The position numbers and the translations under genes are program-made. This document shows, piece by piece, positions 1 to 26,228 of a DNA stretch of 26,228 nucleotides. Below the pieces are notes generated by a model. The model made no database searches and was not told the DNA's origin. It saw only the letters and a list, made by a program, of their open reading frames with translations. The stretch's first letter is position 1; each line of letters begins with the position of its first letter. The stretch is from a virus (Duplodnaviria > Caudoviricetes), in IMG/VR virus record IMGVR_UViG_3300003393_000048, positions 1 through 26,228 of that record; one strand, 5' to 3'.

Positions 1-10
1 ATGAATACTT

Positions 11-478
11 GACCTGATGCTTCAGTCACACTTAGCCCTTTACGGACTAAGATTAACATTTTGACCCGAAGTCCAATGCCACATTCAACTAAAGCAACTG
101 TTACCAGTTAGGGCGGTCACGCTGTACCCTTTTACACTCATCTTATTATGACGCTACAGTATGAATCTAGTTGAACTCACGCATACTGTATGTAGGATGT
201 AATTGTCAACAGAGCCTACTCTTTATAGCTTTACGTATACTAAACCCAGATCTTTTCAAGCAAGTGATCTACGTCCTGTCAAGGATAGTGGTTTTAGTCT
301 CCGCTACTGCACGGAAGTTCCTTCCCCAGCGCAACCCTAGTGCCTGGTTTTATGGGTGTCATATATCGGCGACACAAGCCTATCAGTAGTAAATGAGTAC
401 GGGGGAGTTTAAGGGAGTTAGCGGTTTACGCAGGGAGTATATTGATTTATCTGCTGTACAGATGAGTTAACCGTGCAG
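11..478 (-). ncRNA. Putative large structured non-coding RNA (family not recognised; may extend beyond the window's left edge)
   Basis: No credible ORF. Minus-strand hairpins: CUUAGUCC-GUAAA-GGGCUAAG (51-31), a C(UUCG)G hairpin (80-56), UAACUG-GUAA-CAGUUG (110-95), a 9-bp stem 155-163/182-190, GUAGG/CCUAC (192-219), a multibranch domain 239-299 and GUGUC/GACAC (356-375). Mismatches on the plus strand become G-U pairs on the minus strand. Confidence 0.72.
391..440. repeat. Helically phased GAGT/GGGAGT motif array
   Basis: GAGT at 395, 405, 415 and 435 (10-bp register), three of them as GGGAGT; a further GAGT at 464. Confidence 0.5.
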
Positions 479-904
479 TTAAAGTTTATTTTTAATATGA
501 TTTTTATGCACTTTGAGTGAGATGATGCCGTTGTAGTAGTCTGTAGATTCTAATACTTTTCTATCAAATTGTTCTTTTGCTTCTATGTAAGAGCATACTG
601 CTTTTGCGTTGCAATAGTGCAGTATCTCTCTTTTAAATTTATCTGTGCCTAGTTGAGCTATGTCTGCTAAAAGTTCTACACTTGAGCCATAATATGTTTG
701 CCAATCGGATTCAATCTGACTCTTGATCTTCTTCCGCTTTTTTGTACCATTTTTAAGTTTAACAACCCGGTATGTGGTTTTAGAAAACTTTGACAGCTTC
801 TTTCCCACATACATTCGGTTGTTAGTTAGGTTTGTTATAAGGTACACAAACCCAACACAGTCATCAGGTAATGAGTCTACAACAGTATCGTTGTAAAACC
901 ACAT
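479..904 (-). CDS. Stand-alone GIY-YIG nuclease-domain protein (Seg-like catalytic domain only)
   Basis: GFVYLITN...YVG, YYGSS, FKREIL, a conserved Glu (IEAKEQ) and terminal YYN motifs; 141 aa; start overlaps the upstream stop (TAATG). Confidence 0.8.
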   Translation of the reverse strand: MWFYNDTVVDSLPDDCVGFVYLITNLTNNRMYVGKKLSKFSKTTYRVVKLKNGTKKRKKIKSQIESDWQTYYGSSVELLADIAQLGTDKFKREILHYCNAKAVCSYIEAKEQFDRKVLESTDYYNGIISLKVHKNHIKNKL

Positions 905-1095
905 TACTTTGGAGCAGCAGCCAACGCTTCTTTTTCAGCAGTAATTTCTTTACGGCGTTCTTTGATGGCTTTGCTCATTTCCTGTAGTGCTTTACGAGCA
1001 CGGGCAGCAGCGGCCTTAACACCTTTGCCTGCGAACTTTTCGTTCTCAGACTTGTATGCTTCAAATTGTTCTAATAGTGTTTCATGAGTTGTCAT
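904..1095 (-). CDS. Histone H1-like (Hc1-type) small basic protein
   Basis: KGVKAAAARARKALQEMSKAIKERRKEI resembles the Hc1 motif GNKAAGTRARK. AAAGGA SD precedes the ATG at 1095, favouring it over 1116. Confidence 0.65.
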   Translation of the reverse strand: MTTHETLLEQFEAYKSENEKFAGKGVKAAAARARKALQEMSKAIKERRKEITAEKEALAAAPK

Positions 1096-1105
1096 GTTGT
1101 TTCCT

Positions 1106-2881
1106 TTAATTTTCAATTACCTGTGTATCTGCTTCTAGCATAGTGAATCCATTTTCCTTAACAACCATAAGCACGTTATTAACACGACTTGCTAGTTCAT
1201 CTCGGTGTGAGATTAAGAAAATATTACGATTCATCTCTCGACCCATTGACTTTAGAACTGACATAGAGTGTTCAATGCCCACACTATCCATTCCAGAATC
1301 AACAAGCTCGTCAATAAACATCAAGTTCATTGGCTCAGTGAAGCTTTCGTACACATCTCTAAAACTCCAGCTCAATGCCAGAATTAAACGATTTCGTTCA
1401 CCTCGACTCAAATTATCAAAATCGAAACTTTGTCCTAGTTGGCTAATGTCTACTTCCAAATCACTTTTAAATGTGACAGTGTGTGGTAGTTGTAGTTTGT
1501 CCAAATAGTAACCTAGTCTATGATTTAGATACGCTAAGTTCTGTTCAATAATTCGCTTTCGTACAAAAGAGTCTTTGCTGGTTAATAACTTTAACAAAAA
1601 CTCTTGATGCTCAAGTAGCTTACTTACTTTGTTTATGTCGTCCCAGCTAACCAAAGCTAGGGCAGTATGTTTCATTGCTTCGATCTGTTCCTGGTAAGGA
1701 TCTTCTTCTTGAGTCTTTAACTCAAGCTGCCGACGGATGTTTTCAAGATTATTCTTGTGTGCAGCCGCGTCAGTGACGTCTTGATATTTGGTCTTTGGAC
1801 GATCACCTAGAACACCAATGCTACGAACAGCCATGTCAGCTTGTGCTAGATATCCATGTTCTTCACGAAGCGCATTAACTGTTAGATCCACAGCAGACTG
1901 TGCATCAGTGGCCATTTGGTCATGTTTCTCATCATGTACATCTTGACCACAACTGGGGCATTGGTGATCCTTGATAGAAGCCAGGCTCTTTTGTACCACG
2001 CCTAGTGCATCTTGTAGCTTCTTGACATTACTTTGACGAGTAGCTAATTCTTTATTGGCCAGCTTGAGTCGGTTCTCGTTTTCTTTGTAAAGGGCAACAG
2101 CACGGTGAGCTTCTAACTCTGCTTCAATATCAGTGTTTTCTAATTCTGAAATAGCAGCCACAAAGGTTGTTACATCAGATTCTTTCTTACTAGACCAAAC
2201 ACGACTGCGGCGCTCTAAATCATCGATGCTGGTTTGAACACGGGCATTGCTTTCTTGCAGGGCCTTGATACGTGACTCTTCATCTTTGATGTCGTCTTTA
2301 CTTTTCTTAATGAACTCGCGAAGGATCTCGGCCTTTTCACTTAACTGAGTAATGCCAAGCAGTTCTTCAATAATATCACGTTGCTCACCACTCTTAAGAC
2401 TTAAGAAAGGTTGTGTATAAGTGTTGAGCGCAACAAGGTGCTTGAACATTTCACTACTCATACCTACTACACGTTCAATTGCTTCTTGCGTAACACGATT
2501 TTCACCAGCACCTTCGTCTGTATTTGCTTCGTTAACATCTTGGTCGTCAACTAAGAAGCGAAGCAGGTTAGGCTTACGTCCACGTTCAATCGTATACTTA
2601 GATCCATTCTTTTCAAACTCAACAGTGACCAACATACCTTTGGCATTGGTCTTGTTAATTAAGTTTTCTTTACGGATGTTAGTTAGCGCATTGCCGTAGA
2701 TAGCATAGGATAGTGCATTGACCATTGTAGTTTTACCTACGCCGTTGCGAGCACCGTCACCACCTAAATCGAGATTGTTACCAAGTACTAGCGTCAAGCC
2801 ATGTTGGTTCATGCGAAGGCCCTGGGTAACATTGCCCACGCTCATGAAGTTTTTAATTGTAAGATTGTTAAACTTAATCAA
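1106..2881 (-). CDS. gp46: Recombination endonuclease ATPase subunit (T4 gp46 / SbcC / Rad50-like)
   Basis: IKNFMSVGN start, Walker A NGVGKTT, coiled coil with CPSC zinc hook, LSRGE signature, Walker B FIDE and ISH motif; TTG start overlaps the gp47 TGA. Confidence 0.95.
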   Translation of the reverse strand: MIKFNNLTIKNFMSVGNVTQGLRMNQHGLTLVLGNNLDLGGDGARNGVGKTTMVNALSYAIYGNALTNIRKENLINKTNAKGMLVTVEFEKNGSKYTIERGRKPNLLRFLVDDQDVNEANTDEGAGENRVTQEAIERVVGMSSEMFKHLVALNTYTQPFLSLKSGEQRDIIEELLGITQLSEKAEILREFIKKSKDDIKDEESRIKALQESNARVQTSIDDLERRSRVWSSKKESDVTTFVAAISELENTDIEAELEAHRAVALYKENENRLKLANKELATRQSNVKKLQDALGVVQKSLASIKDHQCPSCGQDVHDEKHDQMATDAQSAVDLTVNALREEHGYLAQADMAVRSIGVLGDRPKTKYQDVTDAAAHKNNLENIRRQLELKTQEEDPYQEQIEAMKHTALALVSWDDINKVSKLLEHQEFLLKLLTSKDSFVRKRIIEQNLAYLNHRLGYYLDKLQLPHTVTFKSDLEVDISQLGQSFDFDNLSRGERNRLILALSWSFRDVYESFTEPMNLMFIDELVDSGMDSVGIEHSMSVLKSMGREMNRNIFLISHRDELASRVNNVLMVVKENGFTMLEADTQVIEN

Positions 2882-3900
2882 ACTGTTAGTCCCTGATAAA
2901 TTTGTGTTAGAATTTGACGATCTATAACATCAGACTCGATTGCCTGGATCTGATTGAGCACGATTGCATCAACAGACTCAAATTGAATCTCCCCGCCTGT
3001 CCACTCGGTTGCGTGTTCTTCTTTCTTACCGGGAATAAGACTTAACTCACGCATGTTATAAGCTTCTGCCCATTGCTCTTTAATATATGTAGCTTCCTCA
3101 AATGAGATATCTACGTCAATTGTAATGCGGGCAAATGTTTGAGCATCAAACAATTCTTCATGTCGATCAATGGCCTGAGTCAGTGTAAGCGTTTTAAACT
3201 TGGGAGCCATTGGCCATGTGCGAAAATCTGGTTCACCACCGTGCTCTAAGAACATACAGCCTCGTTCGTCATCCCAGGCGTCTGCGTAGTTGTGCGGGAA
3301 GCAATTGCCCATGTATATAATGTTGCCTTTGCGCTGGCGCTTGTGAAAGTGTCCTGAAAATACAAGTTCCTGATTAGGAAAATGTCCAGCATTAAGTCCA
3401 CCATGATCTGGCATTTCTACCATGGCGTTCATTTTAAAGCTAGGCAGTTCAAAGTGTCCAAATACATAGCGACTCTTCAGCTTTTTCATAGTCTCCCACT
3501 CGTCGCCTACTAGCCAAGGAACAATAGTCATGTCACCTACTGTCAATGGCTCATCAACAAGTACAACATTACTCAAATGCTTGGCGAATGGCAGCGAGTT
3601 GATCTCGCGCTTCTCACGATATGCAAGATCATGATTGCCCATAATAACATACACCTTTTCAAAGTTCTCCGAGAGATACTTGATATTGGATGTGGTGTAG
3701 TTTAATGTGCTTACGTTTACAGTGGACCGATTGTTATGCCAGTCACCAAGAAAGATGCATGTTTCAGCACCTTCTCGCTTGGCTTCTTCTACCATCCACT
3801 TGATAAAGTTTTCACAGTCATTGTTGTGACTACGACTGTTATTGCGTAGTCCAAAGTGAATGTCTGTGAAGCAAACTGCTTTTTTAAAAGATTGAGTCAT
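2878..3900 (-). CDS. gp47: Recombination endonuclease nuclease subunit (T4 gp47 / SbcD / Mre11-like)
   Basis: Metallophosphoesterase motifs DIHFG, LGDW, GNHD, GHFE and SGHFH; adjacent to gp46. Confidence 0.95.
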   Translation of the reverse strand: MTQSFKKAVCFTDIHFGLRNNSRSHNNDCENFIKWMVEEAKREGAETCIFLGDWHNNRSTVNVSTLNYTTSNIKYLSENFEKVYVIMGNHDLAYREKREINSLPFAKHLSNVVLVDEPLTVGDMTIVPWLVGDEWETMKKLKSRYVFGHFELPSFKMNAMVEMPDHGGLNAGHFPNQELVFSGHFHKRQRKGNIIYMGNCFPHNYADAWDDERGCMFLEHGGEPDFRTWPMAPKFKTLTLTQAIDRHEELFDAQTFARITIDVDISFEEATYIKEQWAEAYNMRELSLIPGKKEEHATEWTGGEIQFESVDAIVLNQIQAIESDVIDRQILTQIYQGLTV

Positions 3901-3906
3901 CAGTTA

Positions 3907-4101
3907 TTATAGCATTTCTTCAAGCGTGTGTCTACAACGGACCAGCTCGTCTTTAAGGAAAAGTTTTCGTTTCTTAAGAGTTTGGGCAACTGGCGTATCG
4001 TTTTGATGTTGTTGTTCAAGGATCAATAATTGTTTTTCAAGACTATCGTGATGGATCACTAAGTGATCAATATGTCGCTTTAAGCTATCTGGATGTTTCA
4101 T
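3907..4101 (-). CDS. DUF465/YdcH-like small coiled-coil protein
   Basis: HDSLEKQL...LKKRKLFLKDEL pattern; AAGGAG SD upstream. Confidence 0.65.
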   Translation of the reverse strand: MKHPDSLKRHIDHLVIHHDSLEKQLLILEQQHQNDTPVAQTLKKRKLFLKDELVRCRHTLEEML

Positions 4102-4103
4102 GT

Positions 4104-4505
4104 TTACTCCTTAGTTAAGAATGGTGCAAGCTCGGGTGCCTTCCAACCTAGTGGCTTAAGGACCTTGCCATCTTCCCGCTTGCGGACCTTGCCTGTTTCT
4201 TTATCCACTTTGGCAAAGTTAGTCATCATAACTTCTTTCCAGCCGCCTTCGGCATTCATTCCTGCCGAATGCATAGCACCAATGGTAACAACTACAATGT
4301 CTAGCAGTGCATCAAGTGTCTCGACCATGTCAACTGGACCTACTTGCTCTCCAGTCTCTAAGTCGATACCTTGTGCTACTTGCAGCTCGTCGAATTCTTC
4401 TTTGATGAGTTTAAGATACATTTTGAATTGTGCTTGATTGCTACCGTCGACACTTTGGTCGCAAGCTCGCATGAATGTCTCTTGGTCACGGAACGGATTT
4501 GTCAT
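4104..4505 (-). CDS. MazG-like (DR2231/PRA-PH type) nucleoside triphosphate pyrophosphohydrolase
   Basis: LIKEEFDEL, ETLDALLD, EVMMTNFAK and REDGKVLKP motifs. Confidence 0.85.
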   Translation of the reverse strand: MTNPFRDQETFMRACDQSVDGSNQAQFKMYLKLIKEEFDELQVAQGIDLETGEQVGPVDMVETLDALLDIVVVTIGAMHSAGMNAEGGWKEVMMTNFAKVDKETGKVRKREDGKVLKPLGWKAPELAPFLTKE

Positions 4506-5506
4506 TATGCTTCCTCGCTGTCTTCTAAAATAATTTCTGAAACTTCGATATCAGCATCTACATCAATGTCTAACTCAATGTCAGTTGCAGGCGCTTCTGT
4601 TTCAAGGTCAGCAGACGCTGGATCTTTGAGTGCATTAAAACGTTCAATGCCTTCAAGGTGTGCTTGTTGGCTTTCCATCTGTCGAGTCCAGCTTGGCATT
4701 TGACCCGAATCACATAACAAGTCGTCACGGATATCACGTTGACGTTTTTCTACGTTAAGCACACGAGTAAAACTGTTTGTAACTGCGGCAGTGTAATAAG
4801 CAAACGGGTTTTGTGATTTACCTTCGTCAAACTGTAGTGCAATTTGTGTTAACTGAATCAAAGCCTGGCCACGCATTTCGTCTACATAGCTATAGCCGCG
4901 CCAGTTGCTTCGAAGGCTGTAACGTTCGCATAGTTTCAAGAACATTGCACCAAGACGATTTGTAATCTGTCCATGATCTTTGCAAAACTCTCCAGTTGCT
5001 AAATCGCCTTTCCAATGACTACGAATCACTTCCCGCCAGGCACCATCTTCATTTTGAACAAAGTGCTTGAATGGGGGAAAGTTTACCTTGGCGCGATGAT
5101 CAGCAATGCTCTTTGGATTGTTTTTACGTCCCGGCTCTAGTGGAATATGTTCAAATGTCATCATGCGGATAACAAGATCAGTAACTGGAATCTTTTTAGG
5201 ATTTACTTCAAATTGATCTTGTTTTGGCTTGGTACTTGCTTTGCCCTTGGCAGCTTCCCATTCGGCAATAGCAGCTTGGTAGGCAGCAGTTTGCATCCTG
5301 GCTGCACGAGCTTCACGTGCCAAGTTAACAGCACCTTCGGGGCATGCTTTGGTCTTACGATTATGAAAACTCTTTAATTCGGTTACAATGTAATCATACT
5401 GTTCAAATTCTTTGCCCTCTTTCCAGCAGTAGTTCATTTTACTTGCATGGATTGCGGCCAAGATATCTTTGTTTTTTAGGTAAATGGTTGTTGTTTTTTC
5501 GGTCAT
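4505..5506 (-). CDS. gp55: Late-transcription sigma factor (T4 gp55-like) with large insertion and acidic tail
   Basis: YLKNKDIL N-terminus; NWRGYSYVDEM...FDEGKSQNPFAYYT...EKRQ core; gp55-gp47-gp46 synteny as in T4-like phages; AAGGAG SD at 5518-5513. Confidence 0.88.
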   Translation of the reverse strand: MTEKTTTIYLKNKDILAAIHASKMNYCWKEGKEFEQYDYIVTELKSFHNRKTKACPEGAVNLAREARAARMQTAAYQAAIAEWEAAKGKASTKPKQDQFEVNPKKIPVTDLVIRMMTFEHIPLEPGRKNNPKSIADHRAKVNFPPFKHFVQNEDGAWREVIRSHWKGDLATGEFCKDHGQITNRLGAMFLKLCERYSLRSNWRGYSYVDEMRGQALIQLTQIALQFDEGKSQNPFAYYTAAVTNSFTRVLNVEKRQRDIRDDLLCDSGQMPSWTRQMESQQAHLEGIERFNALKDPASADLETEAPATDIELDIDVDADIEVSEIILEDSEEA

Positions 5507-25473: not shown

Positions 25474-26228
25474 TGGCTATTCAGCGTAAAAAAATTACCG
25501 CTGAAGACCTAAACAAATTGGCATCTGATGTCAATGAATTGTTTGGCGATACCCATGCAGGTGAAGGGCCATCCACAGACACTCAAACTCAAGACGATAT
25601 TCGTTGGGGCTGGGGAGGTGAGAACGTTGAACATGTGCAGCCAAAGCAAAAGCTAACGGCCGCCTTTACTAACGAATTAGTTAATCGTATTAACCTGAGT
25701 ACATTAAGAACTAACAGTACAGATCAAGAACTTGTTATTGTTTCGCAGGGCGAAAAAGTAACAGCAGAATTTTTTAATACAGCAGCGAATCTATTAGATT
25801 CAGCAAGAAACTCTCGTAACGAAGTTGATCCAGCATTAACTTCGTTGACAACTATTCGAACAGTTACAAGCACAGTAACTCAATGGAGACACCAGCTCGA
25901 AAACGTGGTTGAATTTGATTTTGAAGGATACGAAAGTGCTCGGCACTTTTTTAACGCTGGCGGCGATATTCGTCTGGCATTTTCAATTGTAGACGGCAGC
26001 GGCCAAGGTTACGGAACCTGGCGCAGTATTTTCACTGATCAGGGCACATTACGCTTAAACGTTGATACCATGCAAAGTTTAAACAACCGTGGTATTAGCC
26101 AAGACGTTGGATTCGCAGAGTTAGTACTTGGTGAACAATTGCTTTACACTAGCCCGCAAGGTGGTGGAGGCGGCTATGGTGGCTATGGTGGCTATGGTGG
26201 CTATGGTGGCTATGGTGGCTATGGTGGC
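25473..26228 (+). CDS. Virion structural protein, truncated at window edge (not in the ORF track)
   Basis: ATG overlaps the previous TAA; open for 252 codons (MAIQRKKITAEDLN...ARHFFNAGGDIRL...GGYGGYGG) with no stop before the end. Confidence 0.75.
   Translation, partial: MAIQRKKITAEDLNKLASDVNELFGDTHAGEGPSTDTQTQDDIRWGWGGENVEHVQPKQKLTAAFTNELVNRINLSTLRTNSTDQELVIVSQGEKVTAEFFNTAANLLDSARNSRNEVDPALTSLTTIRTVTSTVTQWRHQLENVVEFDFEGYESARHFFNAGGDIRLAFSIVDGSGQGYGTWRSIFTDQGTLRLNVDTMQSLNNRGISQDVGFAELVLGEQLLYTSPQGGGGGYGGYGGYGGYGGYGGYGG
26172..26228 (+). repeat. Perfect 9-bp tandem repeat (GGCTATGGT)x6+ encoding (Gly-Tyr-Gly)n
   Basis: Six identical copies plus a partial copy, running off the window. Confidence 0.95.

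Follow-up and report, generated by a model that had tools for sequence, protein, structure and literature searches.

A Polynucleobacter-1-type RNA with a covarying direct repeat and a DNA-hairpin tail in a T4-like jumbo phage: a candidate transcription-activated replication origin

The locus and the extent of its RNA

The window, by which we mean the whole 26,228-nt stretch of viral DNA analysed, comes from a T4-like jumbo phage and opens inside the gap 3' of a minus-strand operon of order gp55-gp47-gp46-Hc1-GIY-YIG (Table 1). The upstream operon (1106..5506) contains small genes besides gp46, gp47 and the gene for the gp55-like sigma factor, whose nearest relatives are those of PA5oct and Rak2-like jumbo phages (40-44%). 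A histone-H1-like Hc1 gene (52 bits) stands within this recombination operon, and at the opposite end of the window the final plus-strand ORF (26150-26228) leaves the edge within a GGY tandem repeat. A first-pass annotation had described the gap as free of credible ORFs, and it is: the sole frame, a 72-codon TTG frame on the plus strand, has no Pfam or PHROG match.

The same annotation had proposed that the gap encodes an RNA of about 470 nt that could not be assigned and might be a new class. A conserved structured minus-strand RNA is indeed present, with helices that covary among relatives, and it is both shorter than proposed and in part already catalogued. Positions 380-239 of the minus strand give the single Rfam match of the window, to RF01718, the Polynucleobacter-1 motif (92.1 bits against a cut-off of 37 bits, E 8e-19); the match covers model positions 1-141, the full length of the model, and accounts for the 5' part of the RNA. 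A further model, R1, built without the window, matches 6-161 on the same strand (32.4 bits, E 1.6e-4). The stretch 478-391 is not conserved: the alignment starts only at query position 72 for one relative (L019) and at position 91 for relatives of the L021 type. No promoter consensus was found on the minus strand of this leader, which on that strand is G-poor and contains five repeats starting ACTC(A/C); a 10-nt indel within it distinguishes close relatives. As the annotation had it, the RNA is assignable neither to tRNA, tmRNA or RNase P nor to a group I or II intron, and it is likewise distinct from GOLLD, ROOL and HEARO: none of these has an Rfam match in the window, and ARAGORN gives none either; resemblances by eye to a group I intron, RNase P, HEARO, a hammerhead or tmRNA drew no support from either program and were set aside. 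We conclude that 389-8 (minus strand) is a real structured RNA and not a new class.

The supplementary alignment of Weinberg et al. (2010) is about 290 nt long and has P7 to P10 and pseudoknot B; it ends ahead of the final 80 nt, without the two repeat copies, the terminal hairpin between them or the DNA tail, and pseudoknots A and C are not drawn (PMC2864571). The main-text table lists Polynucleobacter-1 as a possible cis-regulatory RNA (PMC2864571). The extended helices and the pseudoknot of the 2010 alignment are present in the window RNA. In the literature we found no paper that assigns the motif a function or describes the copies reported here.

Table 1. Genes and RNA features at the locus, in window coordinates
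Feature	Position	Strand	Basis or remark
gp55-like late sigma	4505-5506	-	upstream operon
gp47	2878-3900	-	upstream operon
gp46	1106-2881	-	upstream operon
Hc1 histone-like protein gene	904-1095	-	PF07432
SegE-like GIY-YIG gene, 141 aa	479-904	-	PF19835; syntenic neighbour
Variable A/C-rich leader after GIY-YIG stop, outside conserved RNA	391-478	-	alignment of relatives
Full Polynucleobacter-1-type RNA, about 380 nt, conserved extent	8-389	-	covariation in relatives
RF01718 segment	239-380	-	Rfam; P1-P6
Pseudoknot A, 6 bp	389-384 with P3 loop 309-304	-	significant column pair
P1	375-371/360-356	-	RF01718 segment
P2	347-344/329-326	-	RF01718 segment
P3	315-312/303-300	-	RF01718 segment
P4, multiloop closing	294-290/246-242	-	encloses P5, P6
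P5	285-282/277-274	-	within P4 multiloop
P6	270-266/252-248	-	within P4 multiloop
P7	219-215/196-192	-	covariation, stem in sequence
P8, 9-bp stem	190-182/163-155	-	covariation, stem in sequence
Pseudoknot B, 9 bp	P8 loop 176-168 with 91-83	-	covariation; already in 2010 alignment
Pseudoknot C	152-148/120-116	-	core with P9, P10 (92..152); covariation
P9	about 139-137/94-92	-	covariation
P10	130-126/114-110	-	covariation, stem in sequence
Hairpin stem	109-105/100-96	-	stem in sequence
UUCG hairpin, one A.G mismatch	76-71/66-61 within 80-55	-	stem in sequence
Repeat copy 1, GGTCAA	61-66	-	3' side of UUCG hairpin 80-55
Terminal hairpin P12, 8 bp	51-44/38-31	-	stem in sequence
Repeat copy 2, GGTCAA	9-14	-	inferred 3' end of RNA

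Covarying helices, a direct repeat and a DNA-type tail

Relatives were drawn from 80 loci found through GIY-YIG relatives and 240 found through RNA patterns. By sequence they divide into type A, which is Rfam-positive, and type B, which is Rfam-negative; the two share the same 3' end and, by estimate from the RNA-pattern searches, occur in about 880 and 660 IMG/VR stretches respectively. Covariation among homologous loci, a check suggested at the outset, yields significant pairs: against a tree-based null, 60 type A sequences give 18 significant column pairs, comprising 14 Watson-Crick pairs, one alignment artefact and three that covary by identity. Helices of the 5' half (31 pairs, 30 sequences) and of the 3' half (28 pairs, 24 sequences) exceed all 500 shuffles in paired cells, two-sided changes and covariation alike, and sliding controls drop to 33-60% paired. 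At paired columns G-U outnumbers A-C by 99 to 11 and by 64 to 4 (163 to 15), which fixes the minus strand, as the first-pass annotation had it. The stems listed there are all present, although the GGCAUU/AAUGUU stem closes at 80/55 and not at 80/56; three pseudoknots and the direct repeat GGTCAA (66-61, 14-9) had been missed. Pseudoknot A forms a mean duplex of 5.5 bp, against 4.3 (maximum 4.7) with partners shuffled (30 sequences), and pseudoknot B shows two-sided changes in 7/7 pairs and is 94% paired. Many unpaired bases of the RNA are invariant. Better-than-chance folding, also expected of this RNA, holds locally but not for the region as a whole: over 11-478 the z-score against shuffles is 0.00 on the minus and -0.18 on the plus strand, and among eight sub-regions only 8-110 (minus strand) is clearly better (z -4.26). 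A 9-bp helix (95-87/27-19) in the minimum-free-energy fold of the window was left out of the structure, since inspection by eye shows it disrupted in L007.

In type B a separate set of helices covaries, and there is a long-range pairing. RF01718 gave no match in 6 loci of a set of 20, nor in 3 type B loci, and among 20 type B loci R1 matched 10, weakly (15-27 bits); type B is either an uncatalogued family or a distant subtype. These RNAs (L201-L320, of which L225 is an example) have no Rfam match and share the 3' module and tail. One copy, in L081, has a deletion from just 3' of P10 to just 5' of repeat 2, either genuine or an assembly artefact, which removes the pseudoknot B partner, repeat 1 and the terminal hairpin.

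The 3' end of the RNA, outside the 2010 alignment, is organised as repeat-hairpin-repeat. On one side of the terminal hairpin stands NNA-CTC-heptamer and on the other NNA-TCT-heptamer, the repeat reading GGTCAA both times in the window, and a conserved GTGTGAC follows P12 (31..51, minus strand); no U-tract follows, and P12 is therefore not an intrinsic terminator. The first six bases of the repeat are identical in 46 of the 49 type A loci that could be parsed (63 tried; shuffle maximum 22) and in 47 of 48 type B loci (shuffle maximum 38). A broader parse of 345 sequences, which takes the best-matching copy-1 candidate and so carries a small bias, resolved 139 distinct loci, with identical copies in 128 and 28 different heptamers. 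When changes were placed on a parsimony tree built without the repeat (5' part, 46 loci, three misparsed rows left out), all 31 fell in both copies. The repeat is only 6-7 nt long, and the spacing of its copies ranges from 38 to 74 nt. The type A covariation test found no significant complementary partner for the repeats inside the RNA, and a third element pairing with both copies was rejected, no pair being significant. Pairing of the RNA copy with the template strand beneath the DNA copy would be expected to favour identity over complementarity. Mismatches between copies (G-to-A 4, A-to-G 2, A-to-T 5) do not tell in which direction a hybrid would form, and wobble asymmetry was dropped as a criterion for this.

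The RNA is followed, past the edge of the window, by a tail of DNA-type hairpins. The sequence of L001 matches window positions 1-904 exactly and continues beyond that edge; it carries GAGCGTAGCGA 99 nt beyond repeat 2. The pattern GAGCG-N1-2-AGCGA, read on the sense strand, follows repeat 2 in 38 of 67 type A and 43 of 66 type B loci; in the same loci it was not found upstream, and on the antisense strand it was found in 6 and 0. Loops of the C-GNA-G type are unusually stable in DNA, and such triloop hairpins occur in the 150-nt tail in 34 of 46 type A and 36 of 47 type B loci, in none of the RNAs and in 8 of 4650 shuffles (about 0.2%); strict triloops are absent from the tails of G001-G003 and PA5oct. 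An 11-mer of L001 is identical to ColE1 at 1332, on the RNA II strand, about 135 nt past the origin as placed from the sequence. For ColE1, RNA II, a persistent hybrid, RNase H and a downstream-exposed ssiA/pas have been described (PMC5043065, PMC3167613); a putative ssiA/pas-like hairpin is present here too, as a sequence motif, downstream of the RNA on what would be the displaced strand. In Sinorhizobium phage Phosso, a structured gap of 1 kb (L324:16550-17565) separates the resolvase gene from that for RNase HI and has tail-like hairpins on its minus strand, but its arrangement differs and it was rejected as the same unit.

Copies in cultured phages, in bacterial islands and beside the GIY-YIG gene

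BLASTN of the window or of L091 against cultured phages gave no match. The sequence of the syntenic gap in PBECO4 and XbC2 matches 73 phage records, at four or five places per genome in most Rak2-like genomes and at two in the RaK2 group. PBECO4 has four look-alike copies (at about 38, 94, 195 and 305 kb) and XbC2 five (at 29, 95, 175, 259 and 339 kb), in each case on one strand, 56-110 kb apart and among unrelated neighbours; the minimum-gap P values are 0.046 and 0.002, in related genomes whose tests are not independent. Each of these copies has an extended -10-like motif (sigma70-type, by eye) and the repeat-hairpin-repeat arrangement. Across the nine, the core helices PK-B, PK-C, P9 and P10 have 99.5% of cells paired, with two-sided changes in 16 of 22 core pairs; eight have a triloop hairpin, and five of the seven C-GNA-G triloop hairpins in the PBECO4 genome fall within its four tails. 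Three look-alike copies were located in PA5oct, near 13, 76 and 246 kb, all with PK-B, PK-C and P10 in a targeted search run without a null. Covariance models of type A and of the PBECO4, XbC2 and PA5oct units, searched in both directions, gave no significant match (best E 0.28, and 0.87 at best in the right place); these units are look-alikes by topology and not proven family members. A subdomain of about 28 nt with GATCCGTCCAAAATTT or a close variant recurs at differing positions in copies from enterobacterial phages (L578, L579, L580, L582-L584, L586). Freshwater genomes show only one or two copies each.

The window RNA does lie behind gp55-gp47-gp46, but it need not be the tail of their transcript, as had been proposed, since other copies stand alone behind promoter-like sites of their own. 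All copies are on the majority coding strand and several are just behind such a site, as would suit a cis-acting transcription element spaced along that strand, such as a put-like antiterminator or a factor-independent stop. We give this only a slim chance, because the syntenic copy faces convergent genes in the relatives of the window and in PBECO4 and XbC2, the tail hairpins are of DNA type, and the PA5oct RNA stops at repeat 2. In a stranded RNA-seq study, ncRNA004 spans 246116-246734(+), takes 0.02-0.08% of phage reads and corresponds to the one PA5oct copy of three called as ncRNA (PMC7318152). Its 3' end is the last base of repeat 2 (246729-246734), a coincidence that could be chance, the boundary being manually drawn. 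In metatranscriptome contigs, taken from 4 of the 24 runs listed, cover was patchy and low for coding and non-coding parts alike, and DNA may contribute to it.

A discrete PA5oct transcript, together with three pseudoknots and many invariant unpaired bases, would also be consistent with a free trans-acting ornate RNA (a GOLLD/ROOL/OLE-like scaffold, a protein sponge or a ribozyme) whose repeats are two sites for one protein or partner RNA. We regard this as unlikely: a DNA-type hairpin tail accompanies every copy, the copies are dispersed and co-oriented, ncRNA004 is rare, and degenerate recognition by a protein would not usually seem to require identity as strict as that at freely changing A/G positions. 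The evidence favours a unit of RNA plus DNA acting in cis over a free GOLLD/ROOL-like RNA.

The unit is also found in bacteria: of the 141 genomes of the genus Polynucleobacter that were sampled, 16 score above the RF01718 cut-off. The islands examined are about 8-10 kb long, with tyrosine integrases and DUF6641, and hold the whole unit, repeat and tail included; one adjoins tRNA-Phe, two have a phage clamp-loader-like ATPase, and both AAA genes tested match phage clamp loaders. TAAATA stands upstream in 20 of 20 distinct island copies (17% by shuffle) against 0 of 93 phage copies. TATAAATA is the T4 late promoter (PMC5259590). We infer that the islands are candidate satellites of T4-like jumbo phages; our literature search found no description of such satellites. 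The island-variant pattern had 0 matches in viral contigs, and of the 120 matches from an RNA-pattern search of genome contigs 7 were strong by profile and most others chance. We note that integrative tRNA-linked islands, in Polynucleobacter and a Nitrospira-labelled genome (L519:4080-14800, L520:6180-13950, L521 and L522), encode DUF6641 and a gp44-like clamp loader together with two tyrosine recombinases and one protein with an N-terminus resembling phage late proteins.

Satellites need packaging signals, and packaging in T4 and T7 is linked to transcription. A transcription-coupled DNA packaging signal, or one generating terminal repeats, that satellites copied for packaging would account for islands placing the unit behind a late-promoter-like TAAATA. 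This is quite unlikely in our judgement, since the PA5oct copies lie at neither end of its 39-kb terminal repeat, the copies of cultured phages stand behind sigma70-type extended -10 motifs (by eye), and the tail resembles ssiA/pas.

Among loci with at least 900 nt upstream, the GIY-YIG gene precedes the RNA in 68 of 74 of type A and 75 of 75 of type B, and the RNA lies behind 65 of 68 close GIY-YIG homologues, as might be expected if the RNA guided or scaffolded the adjacent nuclease, repeat 1 serving as the guide and repeat 2 as its target. Such a role is highly improbable, because RNA or look-alike units occur without the gene in islands (where tblastn matched only in L503), in the second copy of G001, and in PBECO4, XbC2 and PA5oct; because L095 and L099, where this was confirmed, and the isolates have a resolvase-type gene in the slot; and because Melnitz and C48C1 have the gene with less than 150 nt free behind it. 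The second G001 copy lies 143 kb away among unrelated genes, with no GIY-YIG. The six type A loci without GIY-YIG comprise three with a resolvase-like gene in the slot, one free copy and two chance cases; L150 and L152 were rejected as RNA loci, being chance matches inside ORFs. The GIY-YIG gene is a syntenic neighbour that the RNA does not require, and the linkage of RNA and nuclease is not obligate. GIY-YIG occupies the slot after gp46 in which other phages have a PDDEXK_15/RusA-like or endonuclease VII gene (slot cases are L095, L099, L130, L524:16006-16497 and L323:13387-13884); G001-G003 have GIY-YIG and lack PF24608. Often mislabelled as a homing endonuclease or NAD synthetase, the SegE-like product may be a nuclease that resolves junctions, presumably comparable to Slx1. 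It also stands beside the RNA in two bacterial genome collection entries (L503, L366), which are probably binned phage contigs.

A candidate origin and its relation to known systems

Because the unit is dispersed, co-oriented, DNA-hairpin-tailed, lowly transcribed to repeat 2 and borrowed by islands, where it follows a late-promoter-like motif, we lean, with somewhat more confidence than doubt, towards a cis-acting, ColE1-RNA-II-like primer or R-loop, that is, a transcription-activated replication origin. Building on the observed structure, repeat identity, tail hairpins, multi-copy spacing of the look-alikes and one PA5oct transcript to repeat 2, the following course may be proposed. Host RNA polymerase would transcribe the unit and the RNA would fold behind it; repeat 1 in the RNA would pair with the template strand under repeat 2, and this pairing would nucleate a persistent RNA-DNA hybrid, like that of ColE1 RNA II. 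Leading-strand synthesis would be primed by the 3' end of the RNA, at or close to repeat 2, possibly after trimming by RNase H, and the displaced AT-rich strand would fold GA-GC-GN(N)A-GC-GA and C-GNA-G hairpins that would load helicase or primase, as ssiA/pas does. The satellite-like islands would fire the same unit from the late sigma factor of the helper. CBB has no gp59 and two RNase H genes (PMC5259590); a search of these phages for gp59, run without a positive control, found none, and RNase H (PF00075) is present in two of five genomes tested. Cumulative GC-skew extremes do not fall at the element in G001-G003, and minima near one PBECO4 or XbC2 copy were discarded as support, being non-diagnostic: transcription switches strand at the same place.

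It is conceivable, though in our view somewhat less than probable, that jumbo T4-like phages have several dispersed RNA-defined origins in which a programmable 6-7 nt repeat invades its own template to prime synthesis, and that an undescribed class of integrative satellites captured this origin under a helper late promoter, firing only on infection. We found no report in the literature of replication origins for Rak2-like jumbo phages. Were the origin reading true, an orphan RNA motif of 2010 would gain full boundaries and a function; look-alike units in cultured E. coli and Pseudomonas phages make the hypothesis open to bench testing, and the islands suggest that T4-like jumbo phages have satellites.

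The closest catalogued relative is Polynucleobacter-1 (RF01718), which the window matches over the full model length and from which it differs in the 3' module and pseudoknots A and C, absent from the 2010 alignment. In ColE1 too, a folded RNA of several hundred nucleotides is followed by a junction and, after a further 100-135 nt, by the identical 11-mer on the non-template strand. ColE1 has two G6 runs about 250 nt apart, which Masukata and Tomizawa in 1990 reportedly found to nucleate the hybrid, whereas the repeats of the window family are about 50 nt apart and variable in sequence, and there are several copies per genome. No Rfam RNAI match was found in the window and no RNA I-like antisense was identified; a search of 72,556 plasmids with the island variant returned only a 32-nt piece, in 4 Vibrio plasmids. 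The T4 R-loop origins ori(uvsY) and ori(34) consist of a promoter and an unwinding element and are not known to have a conserved folded RNA. The likeness proposed here is to several transcription-primed origins in a T4-like genome, and the difference that these phages seem to lack gp59. GOLLD, ROOL, OLE and HEARO are comparable in size class and pseudoknot density; unlike them, the present RNA, which has no Rfam match to these classes, is tied to a DNA-type tail and to a covarying direct repeat.
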